Position numbers and translations under genes: made by a program
IMG/VR virus record: IMGVR_UViG_3300021255_000031
DNA length: 64,000 nt
From: a virus
Taxonomy: Duplodnaviria; Heunggongvirae; Uroviricota; Caudoviricetes
Direction: 5' to 3' (one strand)
Notes under the pieces: generated by a model
Database searches by the model: none
Told to the model about the DNA's origin: nothing
Seen by the model: only the letters and a program-made list of their open reading frames with translations
Shown here: positions 526-59,877 of the stretch, one piece after another
How positions within the stretch are numbered: position 1 is the first letter of the stretch
Layout of the letters: each line of letters opens with the position of its first letter

Positions 526-845
526 CTTTACCGCACTTGCTTTCGCAAGCCTATTAAGTTGCGGTCTGGACTATCCCATCAATCTAATAAAAGATTGTCT
601 TTATTATAGTCTCTGAACATCTCTCTAAGTAAATTATACTTACGATTCATTCCATATTTTAAAATTTTATATAATTTTTAGAGATTTTGCTGCGGATTAT
701 CCAATCCTAAATCTTTTTACTATACCAAAATCGTTACTTTTGCCGCGATATTTTCACAAATATCGTTTAGTAATTTAGGCTCTAAGGAACTTCCCGCAAT
801 TTAAAAGATTTTCTTTACATTTTAATGTAAAGGGTCCAGTTCTTA
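526..845 (-). mobile_element. Group I intron (320 nt, no ORF) in dnaE
   Basis: U|...G| boundaries rebuild GGG TTC AAT GCC TCA CAT = GFNASH. Core elements AATTGCGGGAA, AATCCGCAGC, TTCAGAGACTA and GGGATAGTCC are present. Confidence 0.92.
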
Positions 846-2016
846 AACCCATAGCCTCTACTTAATGCCACCTCAACATTCCATACATAGTTACAAAAAC
901 GCTTACTAAGTTTCTTTTCTTCTACTCGTTCAAAAAATTTTTTAGTTAATGCTTCATATTCTTCCGGTTTCTTTTTTGCAATAGATTTACGAAGTTTATC
1001 GGCAAATTGTAAGTCCCAGCCGCCACATTCGGGTAACTGAACTAATTGCATAAATTGTTCCTGCGTAATAGAAAGTCCATTTGAGATATCTAATTCTCGG
1101 TGTAATAATGCTCGCTCTTGTTCCGTTAAGCCGCATTGTATCATTTCATTTTCCCAATCTTGCGGATTAAGTCTAAAACGTGCATATTTATCTAGTGGAG
1201 ATTCTGCGCCTTTCTCTGTTGCCATTAGACGAATTACTGAGTTTAAAGTTGCTAATTCATCGACATTTCGCGGATGGGTTAATGCGATTCCACGAATACC
1301 GCTTTGTTGCTCCATTTGGAAAAGAGAAATTACTTTATGGTTTTGTACCATATCCCACATTTCTTTATTTTCGCGTTCAATATTATATACACCGACAACC
1401 TTCTCGTAAGTCTTACGCAAAGTTTCTTCTGGCTTTACATATCCATGCTCCATAAGTAAATTTAAACAGGTATGTATTTTATCCGCTGCTTCGATAGATA
1501 GCAGGTCCATCTTAATCATCGAGACATCTTCAAGGTCGTGTAACTCATATTGTGTAATAATTGTACCATCGGGTGCGCGCATTAGAGCACTGGAATCTGT
1601 GAAATCTTTATCAAGAAAAACAACGCCGCCTGCGTGAATACCAATACCACAAATAATACCTTCAATATTTTTCGCGGTTTCCCACCAGCCTGGATACTTA
1701 TTTATTTCTTCAATAAAGGTCTGATTCGGTTTTATTCCTTCTTCTTCATCGCCATAATACATCTGAGACAATGTATATGCAGCACCACGTTCAGTTGTAA
1801 TAAGCCCAGACACATATTGAGCTTTATCTATATCAATACCTAATCCACGAGCCGCGGTTTGTACTGCCGCCTTCGACTTTTCTGTTCTGAAAGTTGCTAC
1901 ATTTGATACTCTATTCTCACCGTATACTTTTTTCAGATGCCTTAATACTTGCTCGCGTTTACCACCCTCAATATCAACATCAATATCAAGTACGGATACA
2001 CGCGCCGGATTTAGAA
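846..2016 (-). CDS. dnaE: DNA polymerase III alpha, exon 2 (palm/thumb/fingers)
   Basis: FLNPARVSVLDIDVD, GIHAGGV, KMDLL, SRGYGF. Exon length 1171 nt fits the splice phases. Confidence 0.92.
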
Positions 2017-2951
2017 CACTTTATCCACTGTCACCAGTGGGGTAGACTATCTCTTGCTCTCATAGTATATCATAAAACCCAAATAATTTTTATTATTTTT
2101 TGCGGCTTCAGCCACTAAACGCCTTACATTTACCGTTACGGTTGTTTTAGTATAATGATTATCAATTAACCATTGTGCCGCATCAGTACTACTTTCAAAT
2201 CGTAATAATTGATTATCTTTTTGAAGAATAATGATTTTTCCTAATTGTTGACCAGAAGTATATCTTTCAACATTATTTGCATTTAAAATATTATCTACCG
2301 TAGAATGGTCACAATGCAAATATTCTGCTACTTTTCTTGCAGAACGTAATTGATGATATAACTGAATTATTTCATCTATATCCCAATTATATAATTCTAC
2401 TAAGCGCCCGCCTATTGTGCTATTATATCCATTCTTATATGAATTATAATAAGCAATCCAATATTTTTCACGCTCGTCTAATTTATCATCTGCGACTTCT
2501 TCTATTGTCTCAAATGAAAAATTCTCAATACCATATTTTTTAAAAGCCTTATATAAACTCAAATGTGAAAAATACGGCTTATTCCAATTATTACGATGTT
2601 GCTGAAATCTTTTTTCAACCGGTTTTATAGTTTGTCCTATATAAACCTTATTATTTATATTATTTTGGATTTTATAAATATATCCCATATTATCACCTTT
2701 TTAGTAATATTATGAGAGCCCCCGTACTTGGAGCGGTAGCATCTCCGCCCTACATGGCTACACTCATCACCATTAGTCGTTACACCTTCAACTGTGTCCG
2801 TGGCTCTCCACTAATACAGTAGCTCGGCACGGTATTAACTATTATAGTTTCTACCGTTAGCACAAAAAAATTTTTTGCACACCGCTTGCTGGGCGTTCTC
2901 GGGGTTTATTGTAGTTATGTCACCATAACTAGGAAGCTATTAAATCAGTTA
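2017..2951 (-). mobile_element. Group I intron (935 nt) in dnaE carrying a GIY-YIG endonuclease
   Basis: 5' exon ends in U and intron ends in G. Splicing gives AGG TTT CTA AAT CCG GCG CGT = RFLNPAR before the catalytic DIDVD. Core-like elements GTAACGACTAA and AAGAGATAGTCT are present. Confidence 0.9.
2047..2688 (-). CDS. Intron-encoded GIY-YIG homing endonuclease
   Basis: YIYKIQN...VYIGQT, EKYWIAYYNSYKNGYN; C-terminal HTH/NUMOD-like part; stop codon overlaps the intron J8/7-P7 sequence. Confidence 0.9.
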   Translation of the reverse strand: MGYIYKIQNNINNKVYIGQTIKPVEKRFQQHRNNWNKPYFSHLSLYKAFKKYGIENFSFETIEEVADDKLDEREKYWIAYYNSYKNGYNSTIGGRLVELYNWDIDEIIQLYHQLRSARKVAEYLHCDHSTVDNILNANNVERYTSGQQLGKIIILQKDNQLLRFESSTDAAQWLIDNHYTKTTVTVNVRRLVAEAAKNNKNYLGFMIYYESKR

Positions 2952-4254
2952 ACCTCCAAGGATACATCTGTGTTTTTTCGCGCAGACAATTGATTTGAAT
3001 AATATCTAGAGCATAAAGAAGAACAAAGCCGCCGCCAGAGCCACGGGCGGGCATTACCAACGAACCCGCGTTCCAACATTCATCAATAATTTTTTGAAGA
3101 TTTAAGAAATATGCTGACCACCGTGCTTTATTTACTTCTGAAGATTCCCAAGTCATTTCCAGACATTCATTAATAGCATCGTATGCTTTTCTGTTCTGTA
3201 AATCTGGATGCTCTTCAATACCATCTATAACAGCAGAACATAACTCTCTATCTGCTTTATACTCAGATTCAAAGAACTTATTAAGCTCTGGAATTTTAAT
3301 TATCCATTCTGCATATTCCTTTTTTGTTTTTTCTCTAAATTGACGCCAAGGCAATGAAGGTATCTCTAATGGCTTTAATACGCTAAAATCTTTACATGCT
3401 TCTTTAATATCATGAATGTTTTTGTATGCAGTTTGAAGTTCTTCTTCTGTTAGATAATCAAAGAATGAACGAATTTCTTCATCATTCATCATATAAGTTG
3501 TAGCATAGAATGACTTTACTTCACGCTCGCCATTTTGAGAATTAAGATATGCTTCATGAACGGCTGCGTTTTCTGGTCTAAGATAATGACTATCAGTTGT
3601 AATAATATAAGGAATATCTAACTCTTTGCTGAGTTTTAATAATTCTTTATTAACAAATGTTTGTTCTTTACCATGCGAAGGCTGTAATTCCAAATAAAAG
3701 TTTCCCTTACCGAACAAGCCTTCTATATACTCACACCACTCTTTTGCTGTTTGTAAATAAGACTCATCGTTGGTTTCCATATATTGAAGTAAAAATCTAT
3801 CTAGCTGAGAACCTAAACAAGCGCTACTTGCTATTAAATGGCCAGGATTAGGTCTAACTATATCCTCTAAATCCTGATAATAGGTCATACGCCTACGCTG
3901 GCGCGCGACAACGTATGAACGATTCCAAGCTCTAGTAGATAACTCACAAATTTGATGATAGCCTTCTATATCCTTACACAGCAAAATAAAATGATAATAT
4001 TTATCTACGCCACGCCTAAAATTAGAATTGTTAAGTCCGTCGCGTGTAAGATAAATTTCATTACCACGAATAACTTTAAAATCGGGATATTTTTCTTTAA
4101 TTTTATTATAATATTTTTCTACTTTGATATAACTTGATATAGTTTCATGGTCGGTGATTGCGATACACTCATGGCCTAAATTAATTGCCATATCAATTAA
4201 TGGTTGAACTTTATTTATACAATCTCTTAAAGTCTCATTACTATAATCCGTATG
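2952..4254 (-). CDS. dnaE: DNA polymerase III alpha, exon 1 (PHP domain to YPWR)
   Basis: PHP motifs AITDHE, GNEIY, HFILL, ITTDSHY; RGSGGG motif; ends TGG AGG T at the intron boundary. Confidence 0.92.
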
Positions 4255-35797: not shown

Positions 35798-37198
35798 TCA
35801 GGTGTCCTCAACTTCCTGGGCCTCCTCAATATCCGGAGCAACAGCTTCATCCTTAGCGATACCCTCTAGTACCTTAAAAGAGAAGTTCTTATGCTTATAA
35901 ACCGCGAAGTTAGGACGGTTAAGGATACGCACGACTACGCCCTCGCGCACATGAGTTTTACCGATAGGATCAGGGCCATCGAAGTACTGTTCTACCTTAC
36001 GAAGAACATACTCGCCAGCATTTACATTCTCAGGAATTACAAAGGTTTCAAATTCCATAACAGTATGAACGCCCATCTGCTCGCAGCGCTCCTTGATTTG
36101 CGCAGGAGAGTACTCTACCACATCACCATCGGCATTTACCATAGTCATACGATAGACATATACTTCGCAGCAAGGAGGAACATAATAGTCAGTCTCGCGC
36201 CACTCGGCTAAAGTATAATCACCAAGATCTTCCTTATCGACAAAAATTTCTTCATCGTAGTGGCCATTCTGTGCGCAGCCATAGGAAAACACAGTGATCT
36301 TACCATACTGCTTAGAGAACTCGGGGTCCTTTACCTTAGAATTCTGAACCTCAGACATGATGGGCGCGCCGCCAGGGCCCTGGAAGCCTACGATTTCGTA
36401 ATACACTACCTCGCCCTTACGAAGCTTGCCCTCAAATTTAGCCGCCATTGCGTGACGGAAATCATCGGACTCGTAAAAGCCGCCTTGACGAGTACCATCC
36501 AAAACTACACGACGAGTTCCAGTGATATATCCATATTCCTTGTACTCCTTACCAGGGCGATGGAACAGCGTATCGAGCCAAGACCGCTTGGTATGAACTA
36601 GAGGCAGATATCCGGTGCGTCCAGAGGTGCCGTGCATCTTTAGAGTTAGCTGGACGATATCGCCAACTTTAAACTTGTCGAGATTATAAGCAAGCTGCTC
36701 GGTATCTACGTGCTCGTAGAAGGTAGGCGCGATGTTGACCTTTGCCTTGCGAGGTGTCTTCGCGCCATGATACTGCACGGATGCATTGCTATGAGGAATA
36801 TACTTGCGGCAAATTTCCTCACCATTCAGAACATCAATGCGGTCGCCCACTTTAAGATCAGAGATAGTGCAGAAGTCAGCCAGTGAAGTAATAGGCATAA
36901 ACAAACCATCGGACTTCTCGCCACGAAGCTTGATAGCCTTGATGTTGCGCTTATCGGGGTCAAGATAACCACCGCAGTAGTTACCGTTCTCATCTTTACG
37001 GCGCACCAGGTCGTTTACCGCGCAATAGCGCTCAGAAAGTTGTAAGTCAACAGGAAAATAAATTCCCATTGTACCGAGTTGAGTATCAAGACTAACGATA
37101 GTATCGTTTCCGAAGAAAGTAGCCACCTGAAGCCTATCCGCGTTGGAGTGCGGGCGCAGATGCTCCACCTTTACTACATAACCACAGTGATCAGACAT
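35798..37198 (-). CDS. ATP-dependent RNA ligase (Rnl2/DRB0094-like) with N-terminal tRNA-binding-type OB domain
   Basis: HSNADRL, IKLRGEKSDG, motif I KMHG, YYEIVG, REGVVVR, YKHKN; own promoter at 37232-37260. Confidence 0.85.
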   Translation of the reverse strand: MSDHCGYVVKVEHLRPHSNADRLQVATFFGNDTIVSLDTQLGTMGIYFPVDLQLSERYCAVNDLVRRKDENGNYCGGYLDPDKRNIKAIKLRGEKSDGLFMPITSLADFCTISDLKVGDRIDVLNGEEICRKYIPHSNASVQYHGAKTPRKAKVNIAPTFYEHVDTEQLAYNLDKFKVGDIVQLTLKMHGTSGRTGYLPLVHTKRSWLDTLFHRPGKEYKEYGYITGTRRVVLDGTRQGGFYESDDFRHAMAAKFEGKLRKGEVVYYEIVGFQGPGGAPIMSEVQNSKVKDPEFSKQYGKITVFSYGCAQNGHYDEEIFVDKEDLGDYTLAEWRETDYYVPPCCEVYVYRMTMVNADGDVVEYSPAQIKERCEQMGVHTVMEFETFVIPENVNAGEYVLRKVEQYFDGPDPIGKTHVREGVVVRILNRPNFAVYKHKNFSFKVLEGIAKDEAVAPDIEEAQEVEDT

Positions 37199-47165: not shown

Positions 47166-47783
47166 TCATATATCTTCTGGCTGCATAGGAACTGGAAGCT
47201 GACCGATTTCATTCCGATAATTACGAATATCGGCAATAACAGTTTCAATATTAACAGGATAACAATCGTGAGCATCCATTTCTACGTGATAACATTTATC
47301 TTTCATATCTAAAAATTTATCTTTAGTGTGCGTATGGCCCGCAAGCGCAAAAAGCTTACTATGAATTTTTTCATCATCATAATTACCAACTTTGGTTGGA
47401 TAATGTGAAAGATAAAAACTCCACTTACCATTTTTAATTATAGTAGCATAAGAGCAATGATAATCACCGACACGTATAATATGAGGACAATTTTCTTGGA
47501 TTAGTGCGATTTTATTTATAGTGTCGTGATTACCGAAAATCCAGATTTGAATACCGTTAAGTCGTTGAAGATATGGAATCGCGCCCGCTACATCATTCAT
47601 AGCCATATCACCCAAATTATATACCGTATCATCTGGTTTAACTACACTATTCCAGCGCTCAACAATTGCCTCGCACATTTCTTCTGTAGAGGTAAAACCG
47701 CGAGGTTCGTAAAGGAAAGGCTGAGAATGCATTAGATGTAAGTCGCTAGTTAGCCATATCTCACTCATTCTCTTATCTCCCAT
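47166..47783 (-). CDS. Calcineurin-like phosphoesterase
   Basis: TSDLH, LGD, GNHD, SHYP, GHTH. Confidence 0.85.
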   Translation of the reverse strand: MGDKRMSEIWLTSDLHLMHSQPFLYEPRGFTSTEEMCEAIVERWNSVVKPDDTVYNLGDMAMNDVAGAIPYLQRLNGIQIWIFGNHDTINKIALIQENCPHIIRVGDYHCSYATIIKNGKWSFYLSHYPTKVGNYDDEKIHSKLFALAGHTHTKDKFLDMKDKCYHVEMDAHDCYPVNIETVIADIRNYRNEIGQLPVPMQPEDI

Positions 47784-48253
47784 ATTTGAATAGCACGCAT
47801 ATCTTCATTTAAATGAGGTTCTCTGTATTGGTGATACATTTGTTCTAGCACAGTTTCAGGTACTCGCGCACGCCCTTCACGCTTAGCGTTCCGCCGCGCG
47901 CACTCCTCGATAGGAATATTGAAATATACATAGATAATATTATAATCAGAAAAAACAGTATCAATGGCGCGAGTAAGCTTTATACGAGACTTTTTATTTA
48001 AATGAGTAGCGTCAGCAATTACATCAACATTTGTAGATAAAAATGCGGCGATAACAGAAAAAAAGATATGAAATACATCTTTCTCATGTGAAAAGTATTC
48101 TTCTTGCGGCTCCAATAATTCAAAACGAATAGAGTCGCGTGAAACATAATGTATCTTTTGTTCATCGCTGTGCTTTTTGATAAAGTTCATTGCCCAGGTA
48201 GTTTTACCTGAAGCAGGAATACCACAAAGCATATAAAGAATAGGCTTTCGCAT
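47765..48253 (-). CDS. Polynucleotide kinase-like P-loop kinase (AAA_33)
   Basis: GIPASGKTT, SRDSIR, ADATHL, RNAKR...VPE. Confidence 0.8.
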   Translation of the reverse strand: MRKPILYMLCGIPASGKTTWAMNFIKKHSDEQKIHYVSRDSIRFELLEPQEEYFSHEKDVFHIFFSVIAAFLSTNVDVIADATHLNKKSRIKLTRAIDTVFSDYNIIYVYFNIPIEECARRNAKREGRARVPETVLEQMYHQYREPHLNEDMRAIQIWEIRE

Positions 48254-49231
48254 ACTATCATTCCTTTCGTTTAATAAATATATTATACTATATTTTTTTT
48301 AATTTGTCAAAACATCAATTAATGCTAGAATTGCTTCTGGCGATTCTTTTACTCTATAAAAACCATCTTCTGACCCAATTGTGGCTAGAATAGTATAAGT
48401 ATAATCTTTATCTTTGTGCTGGGATAAACTTTCAATAGTTTTATAATTAATATAAAGTGCAGTCCCATCGGTATTGGTTAATTTAATAAAATTCTTCATA
48501 TTATTTTTCCTTTCTCGGCATTGGCTCACAATTTTGTGGTGAAACAGACCAGATATCGCCATTACGGCACTGTAATATGGCATCACCATTTTCTTTATAT
48601 TTTCCAGTAAAAAGGCCATTAATCATGCGGCCACACGGCGTAGAATCTGGCCATTGATATCGCTTACCTGCAATTAACTTCTCTTTCATATATTCATCCT
48701 TTCATAGTGTTAAACAATTTTTCATAATCATTTTTGCTTAATTTTTCAAGAATAGAGACTAATTCATATGAACAATTGGCTATTTTAATTTGCTCTTTTA
48801 AGAGTTTTATCAGAGCGCTTCGTTCTTCCTTTTTTAAGAATAATATTTTCATATAAATTTCTTTCCTTTTCTTTTTTCTATAGTCATTATATCATAATTT
48901 TAAAAAATAGTCAAATAAAAAAAAGAGGAAGATTATTCATCTTCCTCGTTATATTGTAAAGCATCTAACTTTTTTTGGTCAGTAATACTCCATAAAGTAT
49001 TGGGTTTCCAACCATTATGGCCACGATTATTAGTTTTCACAGAACACATTGGACAGGAACAATGAATCTTATTTTTACTATATTGATGAAGATTATTGTA
49101 CCAGTCATAGTTATATCCACTGGGCTGTGTCTCGCGGTCAATCCTACGCTTACGGATTGCTTTCGTATAATCATTATGTCGTTTTTCTGCCGTCGTCCTC
49201 ATAAATAACACTTCCTAAGATGACAGTTAAA

Positions 49232-49421
49232 AGCTCCCGATAGGACTTGAACCTACAACCTGCGCATTACTGGAGCCGAGTGTGAGTTATGAACTCACAT
49301 ATCTTCGCCTAATTGATTCGTCAATCAATTAGTTTATCATACGGTCTTTTCCCTGTGATTCGGGTGTTTTACTTTAAACTAACTCGACAAGTGCGCTGCT
49401 CTACCATTGAGCTACAAGAGC
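49232..49421 (-). tRNA. tRNA-Thr(UGU) interrupted between nt 34 and 35 by a 118-nt tRNA-like insert (49271-49388)
   Basis: Removing the insert gives a 72-nt cloverleaf with GCGCA-CT TGT AA-TGCGC. Confidence 0.88.
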
Positions 49422-51871: not shown

Positions 51872-52019
51872 TGTGCCCGGCGAGGCTCGAACTCGCGACC
51901 CCTTGATTATGGTGGAGTATCAAGGTATTGCACCTTGTCCTCTATTAGACGTCTCTAATAGTATGCTCTTTACATTACTACCCCAAAGTCAAGTGCTCTA
52001 CCAACTGAGCTACGGGCAC
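51872..52019 (-). tRNA. tRNA-Lys(UUU) interrupted between nt 35 and 36 by a 75-nt tRNA-like insert (51910-51984)
   Basis: Removing the insert gives a 73-nt cloverleaf with CTTGA-CT TTT AA-TCAAG. Confidence 0.9.
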
Positions 52020-52801: not shown

Positions 52802-52913
52802 TGGTGGAATGTGGGAGAATTGAACTCCATCCTTATGGATCGACATTTGCAATGCCTACGTTATCACCTTGCGGTTTACCTCGGTGGCTACCCTGATGCC
52901 ACTTTCACATCCC
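52802..52913 (-). ncRNA. 112-nt tRNA-like RNA with G3-U70/A73/CCA acceptor and extra internal domain
   Basis: GGGATGT/ACATTCC-A-CCA, GGAG-TTCAATT-CTCC, GGCA-TTGCAAA-TGTC. Confidence 0.7.
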
Positions 52914-55260: not shown

Positions 55261-55589
55261 TATTATCCCTTTTTACTGATAAATTTCATTTCAATTTTGG
55301 TGCCATGAGGAATAATATAATTATTAAAATAATTATCTGGAAGAGAACAAATTATACTTGAGCCCTCTTTTTGGAAACAATCCTTATATTGTCCATTACC
55401 TTTCTCATCGAGTGTACGCATTAACCAATTATAAATGGAATCAATAAATTGACTTTTTGTCGCTGTGCTGCTTAGAGTTTCCTTATCCATATTATTTCCT
55501 CATTTCCTTTTTTCTAAAAAAATTATACCATAATTTTAGAGAAAAGTCAATTATAAAAATAAGATGGAAAAAATCCATCTTTTAAATAC

Positions 55590-55697
55590 TAGGCGTCTTA
55601 TTTATTGTCCTACCAATTGGACGATTCGCAAAAAGGATTGCAAAATGGGACTCGAACCCATAACCTATAAAGGCATAATTGTTGCTGAAAACGCCTA
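55590..55697 (-). ncRNA. CAGCAA-scaffold RNA, copy 5, with circularly permuted tRNA module
   Basis: TAGGCGT/ACGCCTA helix; T arm, then acceptor 3' strand TTTGCAA, linker, acceptor 5' strand TTGCGAA, then D arm. Confidence 0.8.
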
Positions 55698-55700
55698 TAA

Positions 55701-55817
55701 TGCTATCGAGTGGATTTGAACCACCACTGCGTAGATTTTGAAGGTCAATGTAAGTGATGACCTTACCGCGCTCTGGCTATTGACCGTCTACTGCCTCTGC
55801 CGTTGGGCTACGATAGC
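55701..55817 (-). tRNA. tRNA-Leu(CAA) with short variable loop, interrupted between nt 32 and 33 by a 44-nt acceptor/T-arm mini-tRNA (55742-55785)
   Basis: Removing the insert gives a 73-nt cloverleaf with GTAGA-CT CAA AA-TCTAC. Confidence 0.85.
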
Positions 55818-55828
55818 AAATTAAAAAC

Positions 55829-55945
55829 TAGACCCACTTATTACGCGCTCTACCATTAAGCTATTTGGGCTTAAAAGCCCAAAGATGGAATCGAACCATC
55901 ACATACGTGCCCCACATGCAAAAGAAATAATTGCTGACAGGTCTA
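55829..55945 (-). ncRNA. CAGCAA-scaffold RNA, copy 6, with circularly permuted tRNA module
   Basis: TAGACC/GGTCTA helix; GATGG-TTCGATT-CCATC, TTTGGGC-TTTTAA-GCCCAAA, GCTT-AATGGTA-GAGC. Confidence 0.8.
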
Positions 55946-56849: not shown

Positions 56850-56948
56850 AAATTTACCTCATTCTTATAAAATTAATGCTGGGCAGGGCGACACTCCCGC
56901 ATCTCCTAACAATGGGCGATAGCTGCCTGTTCTATCCTCCAACTTGAC

Positions 56949-57089
56949 CGCCCGGTGAGGGGCTCGAACCCCCGACACTGCGGTTAATACAGAGGCGAGA
57001 ATTGAACTCGCAACGTGGGCGTCCCTCACATGATTACCAAATCATCTCTCTGTCACAGCCGCATGCTCTACCGACTGAGCTAACCGGGC
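56949..57089 (-). tRNA. tRNA-Asn(GUU) interrupted in the anticodon (nt 35/36) by a 68-nt tRNA-like insert (56987-57054)
   Basis: Removing the insert gives a 73-nt cloverleaf with TGCGG-CT GTT AA-CCGCA. Confidence 0.88.
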
Positions 57090-57099
57090 AAATTCGGCA

Positions 57100-57345
57100 T
57101 GCTATCTCTGAGCTGACGAGCGCCGCACCCGTATAGTCTTACCTATAAGTAGCTATCCTAAATTAAGACCTGATAGCAAGGTAATTATAACCGCTCATAA
57201 CTGTTTACGTTACTTCGTTGGCGGCCGCAACGATAGGCATCTCACCCAGTCCAAGGCGGTTTTTACTCATGCTGGAGATTGTATTAAAGAAAATGTCAAC
57301 TAGTATAAGCCAGCATCCCGCTGAACTACATTTTCTTTTACAAGG
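57100..57345 (-). ncRNA. Unidentified structured RNA candidate (about 245 nt)
   Basis: No ORF; several perfect helices (ATGCTGG/CCAGCAT, CGTTG/CAACG, GCTATC/GATAGC, TATAG/CTATA). Confidence 0.45.
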
Positions 57346-57372
57346 CTCGTGCTCATTAAACACAAGCAGAAA

Positions 57373-59801: not shown

Positions 59802-59877
59802 AATATAGTCTCCTTGCGGTTCCCTACCCGCAATTTGTATTTCGTTGATTGGGTTCCTTTCCCCTTTCAACATAATA

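Follow-up and report, generated by a model that had tools for sequence, protein, structure and literature searches.

The window analysed here, a 64,000-nucleotide stretch of viral DNA (IMG/VR record IMGVR_UViG_3300021255_000031), belongs to a large, AT-rich phage genome with genes encoding DnaE, DnaB, gyrase, and a GH25 lysin. Its nearest relative (G001/G004) is a complete 167-kb phage, and weak protein matches point to a host among the Bacillota. The minus strand carries a cluster of over 20 tRNA genes, including the tRNA-Thr(UGU) gene of this gut or rumen phage (49421-49232), whose anticodon loop contains 118 extra nucleotides. Deletion of these nucleotides gives a 72-nt cloverleaf that is called as tRNA-Thr(UGU) by ARAGORN. 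The insert (49271-49388) starts at the first base of a 7-bp acceptor stem, ends with U73-CCA, and interrupts the loop between U34 and G35. The features of the locus, with those elsewhere in the window that bear on it, are as follows:

49389..49421, minus: 5' exon of tRNA-Thr(UGU), with acceptor 5' strand, D arm, anticodon stem 5' strand, and C32-U33-U34; same junction in 9 nested homologs
49232..49270, minus: 3' exon of tRNA-Thr(UGU), with G35-U36-A37-A38, anticodon stem 3' strand, T arm, acceptor 3' strand, and U73; CCA not encoded
49271..49388, minus: 118-nt insert, member of a tRNA-like RNA family; 124 bits with covariance model R1, of which it is itself a training sequence
49382..49388, minus: insert acceptor 5' strand, pairing with 49281-49275; double changes in 7/7 pairs among 15 sequences
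between 49389 and 49388, minus: predicted RNase P cut
49366..49379, minus: insert D arm, with a 4-bp stem and variable loop, no GG in the window member; one pair double-changed, three invariant
49351..49364, minus: small hairpin replacing the anticodon arm, with a 3-bp stem and 8-nt loop; loop 7/8 invariant, outer pair C-G, A-U, or U-A
49344..49350, minus: linker with invariant AGAC at its end; 5/7 positions invariant
49306..49343, minus: variable arm, with a 3-bp base, internal loop, and 10-bp GACG hairpin (49332-49309); base covaries, interior freely swapped
49299..49305, minus: linker with invariant AAGAU at its start; 5/7 positions invariant
49282..49298, minus: insert T arm, with a 5-bp stem and 7-nt loop, degenerate in the window member; double changes in 4/5 pairs
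49271..49281, minus: acceptor 3' strand, discriminator U73 (49274), and CCA (49273-49271); U73 in 15/16 and CCA in 14/16 members
between 49271 and 49270, minus: predicted 3' cut
35798..37198, minus: candidate sealing ligase, a DRB0094-like ATP-dependent RNA ligase with an N-terminal OB fold, 466 aa
47166..48253, minus: polynucleotide-kinase-like P-loop protein and calcineurin-like phosphoesterase, candidate for end healing
48925..48947, minus: terminator-like hairpin at the unit end; consensus match only
51411-51383, minus: promoter-like site; consensus match only

Several other features of the minus strand were recorded. An uncalled tRNA-like RNA at 52802-52913 ends in CCA and has a long acceptor stem, additional arms, and a loop containing a GCA triplet; it could represent an unusual tRNA-Cys or a Sec-type scaffold, and its match to tmRNA is weak (E 1.5). 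Matches to known RNA families at 55587-55908, 56875-56946, 57224-57368, and 59815-59873 comprise YrlA below threshold, a skipping-rope RNA above threshold, and cow-rumen-3 and cow-rumen-4, both near threshold. The tRNA cluster also contains a free-standing PD-(D/E)XK endonuclease gene (PF11645; 52299-52763) that was not found in G001, and the DnaE gene (815-4191) is split into at least two parts separated by a 213-aa frame.

The initial annotation had described the insert as a tRNA-like fold with an acceptor stem, D-like and T arms, and a long hairpin, and each of these elements lies at its place on the minus strand. Folded alone, the insert reaches -33.6 kcal/mol (z = -4.5), a stability equalled by none of 200 shuffled sequences, and the predicted fold of the 190-nt precursor is one tRNA inside another. 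Across seven close homologs, all 29 pairs are kept, six of them with double changes. The most conserved part is a third hairpin (49364-49351) with two single-stranded motifs, which had been overlooked. The window sequence taken alone allows the boundary to slide by 1-2 nt owing to GU repeats at both junctions. Homolog L003 rules out a site after U36, and the inserts of L119 and L334, which start with C, fix the boundary between U34 and G35, settling the position as first proposed. In L005 and L006, which are intronless alleles, the empty loop is visible.

Four inserts that begin and end flush with mature tRNA ends occur in the window (118, 75, 68, and 44 nt), that of tRNA-Thr(UGU) being the longest, in agreement with the earlier reading. 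The others, all on the minus strand, lie in tRNA-Lys(UUU) (51910-51984, 75 nt, ending in CCA, after position 35), tRNA-Asn(GUU) (56987-57054, 68 nt, after 35), and tRNA-Leu(CAA) (55742-55785, 44 nt, after 32). A GACG-capped hairpin is also present in the Lys and Asn inserts. The relative G004 carries a fifth flush insert in tRNA-Gln(UUG), a gene that is intact in the window.

A search with the interior of the insert retrieved the distant L119 and L334, at the same tRNA-Thr site, and seven free-standing members located in phage tRNA clusters, one of them directly downstream of a promoter-like site. The family thus comprises 16 sequences, 9 nested in tRNA-Thr(UGU) and 7 encoded as free-standing genes. 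In the 15 aligned sequences, 100% of the cells are paired and 16 of the 22 helix pairs show double (compensatory) changes; in slid-alignment controls, pairing drops to 33-42%. The invariant core is unpaired, consisting of 7/8 positions of the small hairpin loop and 5/7 positions in each of the linkers before and after the variable arm. The acceptor stem has zero invariant bases across the family, the variable arm ranges from 14 to 39 nt, and among the nested members the core is fixed while the stems, D loop, T loop, and variable arm change. The 10-bp GACG hairpin, which the initial annotation had listed, is indeed present at 49332-49309, but unrelated 4-6-bp hairpins replace it in L334 and in six free-standing members. 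Judged by this comparison it is dispensable and not the functional cargo, the invariant bases being those of the small hairpin loop and of the two linkers on either side of the variable arm. The AAGAU linker may pair either with the linker on the other side of the arm, through tandem G-A pairs, or with the small loop, as a 3-bp pseudoknot; neither pairing gives a covariation signal, as these bases never vary.

The covariance model R1 scores members at 86-131 bits, all of them training sequences or near-copies, compared with 53 bits for the flush insert L231, which has no core, and at most 40 bits for ordinary tRNAs. It found one member per genome. The family is present in two phage groups with only 6-18 proteins in common. 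A tree did not reject monophyly of the nested members (p-AU 0.07), so that one capture or two both fit. By eye, the acceptor of the window group corresponds to that of L119 and L334 shifted by one pair at each end and still of 7 bp, as expected if helix length is measured. In Rfam, searched at the gathering score and down to E = 5-10, the nested and free forms match nothing but the generic tRNA model. BLASTN with four queries against 50,697 GenBank phages found no family member in a cultured phage; a match in Lactococcus phiL47 involved the T arm alone and was rejected. The core pattern was absent from 151 bacterial genomes sampled from the class of a Faecousia MAG, and the generic nested pattern gave few true matches in GTDB, mostly on tRNA-rich MAG contigs that are possibly phage. 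As a conserved RNA family without an Rfam model it is new, the candidate models of Fremin et al. 2023 (PMC10690425) being outside the sequence-level comparison.

The insert also belongs to a broader class. Two generic pattern scans of IMG/VR, together with scans for Thr genes, yielded at least 86 distinct flush inserts of 43-135 nt, with inner boundaries set by the insert's own pairing and without use of the outer loop. All start at acceptor base 1; 71 end in CCA, 6 in a near-CCA triplet, and 9 at the discriminator. Among the matches listed, leader and trailer add up to exactly 7 loop bases in 59 of the 65 generic-scan inserts whose 5' side was not fixed; shuffling of those 65 gave a mean of 19.9 and a maximum of 33 in 20,000 trials. 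Restored loops carry Y32, U33, and R37 in 86/86 of the matches listed, R37 being partly built into the pattern. Among the same matches the restored isotype is that of the nearest intronless tRNA in 67/86, compared with 31/86 for ARAGORN's own placement. Insertion sites lie after position 32, 34, 35, or 36, and most are in tRNAs that have U34 and an A/U-rich anticodon, with Thr over-counted by the Thr scans. Since the site varies, the ends of the insert rather than a position in the host tRNA define the cuts. The smallest inserts (43-44 nt) are just a 12-bp acceptor-plus-T helix with no cargo and follow the same junction rule, and the ends are mature tRNA ends in inserts with and without CCA alike. 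The tRNA-Thr(UGU) insert shows the same organisation, starting at acceptor base 1, ending in CCA, having a top half of 7 + 5 bp, and leaving a restored 7-nt loop.

Other cargoes were observed in this class. A second conserved one (129 nt; L008:3670-3798, L026, L036, L089, L382) occupies the same tRNA-Thr(UGU) site with an unrelated interior and a possible 6-bp loop-loop pairing. A third (123 nt; L062:721-843, L140, L164) occurs in three tRNAs, after 34 in Thr and after 35 in Lys and Gln, a distribution suggesting movement of cargo RNAs from one tRNA gene to another. After U34 of tRNA-Leu(UAA), some phages have group I-like introns (L001:1845-2120, L004:7250-7660) and others tRNA-shaped inserts of 47-68 nt (L026, L089, L116, L140).

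From the fold, the site, the family, and the flush ends, all of which can be read in the sequence, we infer that the insert is very probably spliced out, and the enzymes and the job of the released RNA are likewise proposed below. On balance, the likelier account is a two-product gene processed by RNase P, a cut after CCA, and a phage ATP-dependent ligase. A tRNA-like RNA with its own gene elsewhere would have been captured whole, mature 5' base through CCA, within the tRNA-Thr(UGU) anticodon, either by ligation of a mature RNA into a nuclease-cut anticodon loop and copying into DNA or by insertion at the DNA level. The precursor would then fold as a tRNA within a tRNA. RNase P cleaves directly before acceptor base 1, generating a 3'-OH on the upstream fragment, and 3' endonucleases leave a 5'-phosphate downstream. 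Host RNase P would accordingly cut 5' of 49388, leaving the 5' exon with a 3'-OH, and a second endonuclease would cut directly after CCA, leaving the 3' exon with a 5'-phosphate. The tRNA halves would remain paired and be joined by the phage ligase, the host CCA-adding enzyme would complete the spliced tRNA, and the released RNA would be the same product as that of the free-standing genes. ATP-dependent RNA ligases need 5'-phosphate ends (PMC7824862), so the ends expected from RNase P and a 3' endonuclease are those that such a ligase joins. Healing by the kinase/phosphoesterase at 47166..48253 is needed only if the cuts leave a cyclic phosphate and a 5'-OH.

The weakest step is the cut after CCA. 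CCA generally blocks bacterial-type tRNase Z, although the T. maritima-type enzyme cuts after CCA (PMC3161902), and E. coli RNase E cuts precisely after CCA on proline tRNAs (PMC5291269). A PF12706 (RNase Z-like) protein was found in 0/5 phages, and no phage candidate for the 3' cut emerged. The degenerate T and D loops of the window member may moreover weaken recognition by RNase P or Z, and flush ends are also expected from capture of a mature RNA even without later removal. The distribution of ligases is consistent with the proposed joining step: ATP-dependent RNA ligases occur in 25/27 insert-bearing records versus 10/23 others, with RtcB in 0/27, and among records at least 90% complete in 17/17 versus 3/8, a comparison that is not phylogenetically independent and whose controls are less complete. 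An Rnl1- or Rnl2-type match is present in every complete carrier tested, and RtcB in none. These ligases are not orthologous across carriers, several matches are weak, and the G034 match probably represents a DNA ligase; ligases are also present in carriers of the free-standing form. The window candidate (35798..37198) matches PF09414 (E 3e-4), PF21189 (E 4e-4), and TIGR02306 (E 1e-14, under the family cut-off).

Different accounts of the insert have to be weighed against this route. A dedicated phage or host endonuclease measuring the acceptor-T helix could make one or both cuts, followed by kinase/phosphoesterase healing and ligation. Such an enzyme would solve the cut after CCA, and the proteins encoded by the window and its relatives include a kinase, metallophosphoesterases, an RlaP-like nucleotidyltransferase, a cREC domain, and DUF5662. 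We consider it unlikely, as BLAST among 8 genomes revealed no nuclease family common to all carriers, no archaeal-type splicing endonuclease EndA (PF01974) was found in these phages, repair genes of this kind are general in large phages (PMC7824862), and the insert ends are those of mature tRNAs whether or not CCA is present. The halves might also never be rejoined, the outer tRNA being a dead shell or processing scaffold and the inner RNA, or the whole 190-nt RNA, being what matters. Release of the inner RNA would then need only RNase P and 3' trimming, with no precise cut and with destruction of the 3' exon; the inner RNA probably has a conserved function of its own, and L089 keeps a second, intact tRNA-Thr(UGU) beside the split one. 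What makes this improbable is the state of the host gene: its exons show paired changes between carriers, with the anticodon halves kept, and form perfect cloverleaves across phages at just 36-55% protein identity. Furthermore, no tRNA-Thr(UGU) other than the split gene was found in five genomes (G002, G003, G004, G005, G059), and the cargo-free 43-44-nt inserts follow the same rule. Intact tRNA-Thr(UGU) genes are present in G060 and G062, the best-covered carriers of the free-standing form.

It is highly doubtful that the insert is a selfish or neutral passenger, spliced but with a nested core that is a relic of the free-standing gene. The occurrence of another cargo type in three different tRNAs (L062, L140, L164) fits such mobility, but the nested core stays fixed as the stems, loops, and variable arm around it change, nested carriers lack an additional free copy (the family matches once per genome), and the window's PD-(D/E)XK gene was not found in the nearest relative with the same insert. 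A search for a PD-(D/E)XK homing nuclease gave no match in nine records, a weak result because the control was silent too. Self-splicing, in which the invariant core would be a small ribozyme removing the insert, is extremely improbable. Ribozymes typically have unpaired invariant bases surrounding a helical junction, as seen here; the same core, however, occurs in seven free-standing genes, where there is nothing to splice, most other flush inserts do not have it, no Rfam ribozyme matches down to E = 5, and the insert is too short for a group I core and has no terminal G. HDV-like and theta ribozymes were rejected as the candidate catalytic C is not conserved.

Under the favoured route through RNase P, a cut after CCA, and ligation, the excised product is probably functional, because free-standing genes make the same RNA. 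The remark in the initial annotation that the insert has room for an extra function is also better supported by this occurrence as a free-standing gene in other phages. The insert was rejected as a decoding tRNA: it has a 3-bp stem and an 8-nt loop in place of a 5-bp stem and 7-nt U33 loop, and its central triplet varies. For synthetase identity, all 7 acceptor pairs vary, no isotype is consistently nearest, and only U73 is kept; the parent isotype of the insert frame likewise gave no consistent answer. No protein partner tracking the RNA family was found among the carriers compared. With no decoding, no fixed synthetase identity, and no tracked partner gene, we tentatively favour an uncharged tRNA mimic, whose invariant core might bind a host protein that handles, attacks, or senses tRNA, for example as a decoy. 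A charged carrier seems decidedly unlikely, and a ligand-binding or catalytic core more so.

tRNA-shaped introns in phages have been observed before. Devoto et al. 2019 (PMC6784885) noted that the tRNA-Thr(TGT) intron of Lak megaphages "may encode a tRNA" and called phage tRNA introns "enigmatic", with no mechanism proposed; neither a follow-up nor a description of the splicing route proposed here was found in the literature searched, most subscription journals lying outside its coverage. As in the window, a phage tRNA-Thr(UGU) anticodon loop is split there by a tRNA-shaped insert (114 nt), and intronless alleles are known. However, the Lak inserts begin with ~30 nt of leader hairpin and A/U linker, lie after position 36, and have no CCA; they show no sequence likeness to the window insert, and the Lak-type L289 does not score with R1. 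RNase P alone cannot define the 5' junction of such inserts, which form a separate group (L002, L241, L245, L249, L268, L271, L280, L289, L293, L300, L309). Group I introns share the position class (after U34, for example in tRNA-Leu(UAA)) and are present in the Leu tRNAs of G002 and G003, but they are 198-325 nt long with a ribozyme core and a terminal G, whereas the window insert has 118 nt, ends in CCA, and has no such core. A group I intron was rejected on the lack of a P3-P7 core match (Rfam to E = 5) and on the CCA end once L119 and L334 fix the register. Protein-spliced introns of archaea and eukaryotes (EndA/TSEN, RtcB) are likewise removed by protein cutting and ligation from varied positions; here, the information for cutting is apparently in the intron's own tRNA shape. 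A bulge-helix-bulge intron was rejected, its defining motif, a 4-bp helix with two 3-nt bulges on opposite strands, being absent from the junctions in the predicted precursor fold. Neither PF01974 nor RtcB was found in the phages.

In mitochondrial tRNA punctuation, mascRNA/menRNA, and two-piece tmRNA, a tRNA-shaped unit is also freed by RNase P and a 3' endonuclease; their flanks are not rejoined, whereas ligation would be required here to give a tRNA. For the released RNA, the species 1 and 2 RNAs of T4 (rnaC, rnaD) are comparable, as they are stable, non-decoding, 119-139 nt long, and encoded in a phage tRNA cluster, and rnaC has a tRNA-type T arm. They were rejected as relatives, scoring 15.6 bits with R1, under ordinary tRNAs, with no shared core and never nested, so rnaC parallels the free RNA by analogy only. 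YrlA Y RNAs with Ro60/Rsr (RF02553) are also phage-borne tRNA mimics, and the window has a DUF2828 gene, that is, a Ro60-like protein. The insert was rejected as a YrlA Y RNA given its open acceptor end with CCA and the lack of an RF02553 match, and the Ro60-like protein was rejected as a required partner because a homolog of the window's protein is absent from four near-complete carriers (G003, G060, G061, G062). The DUF2828 homolog in G002 (G002:C1:60204-61715) contains one in-frame TAG, and that genome has a CUA-anticodon tRNA, making amber read-through or recoding possible.

The insert is real, selected, and more than a long intron. tRNA-shaped phage introns have already been published; novelty, if demonstrated, would lie in the splicing route and in the RNA family. 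The locus adds to the class a likely origin, the free gene being found inside a tRNA with its CCA included, and a conserved phage RNA with strong covariation. From the junction rule follows a mechanism open to testing, with precise predictions of cleavage sites and end chemistry. For genome annotation, default ARAGORN misses genes with flush inserts, and with the intron search on it gives the nearest-intact isotype in 31/86 among the matches listed, so that the phage tRNA inventories of these genomes are wrong. If the reading is true, the nested and free forms would be direct evidence that such introns arise by capture of whole tRNA-like RNAs into anticodon loops, and phages would have a splicing route independent of both ribozymes and EndA-type enzymes. 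There is somewhat short of an even chance that this amounts to a fourth way of tRNA splicing, in which the intron is a functional RNA gene cut by ordinary tRNA nucleases and ligated by the phage, and one gene would yield both tRNA-Thr and a needed mimic.
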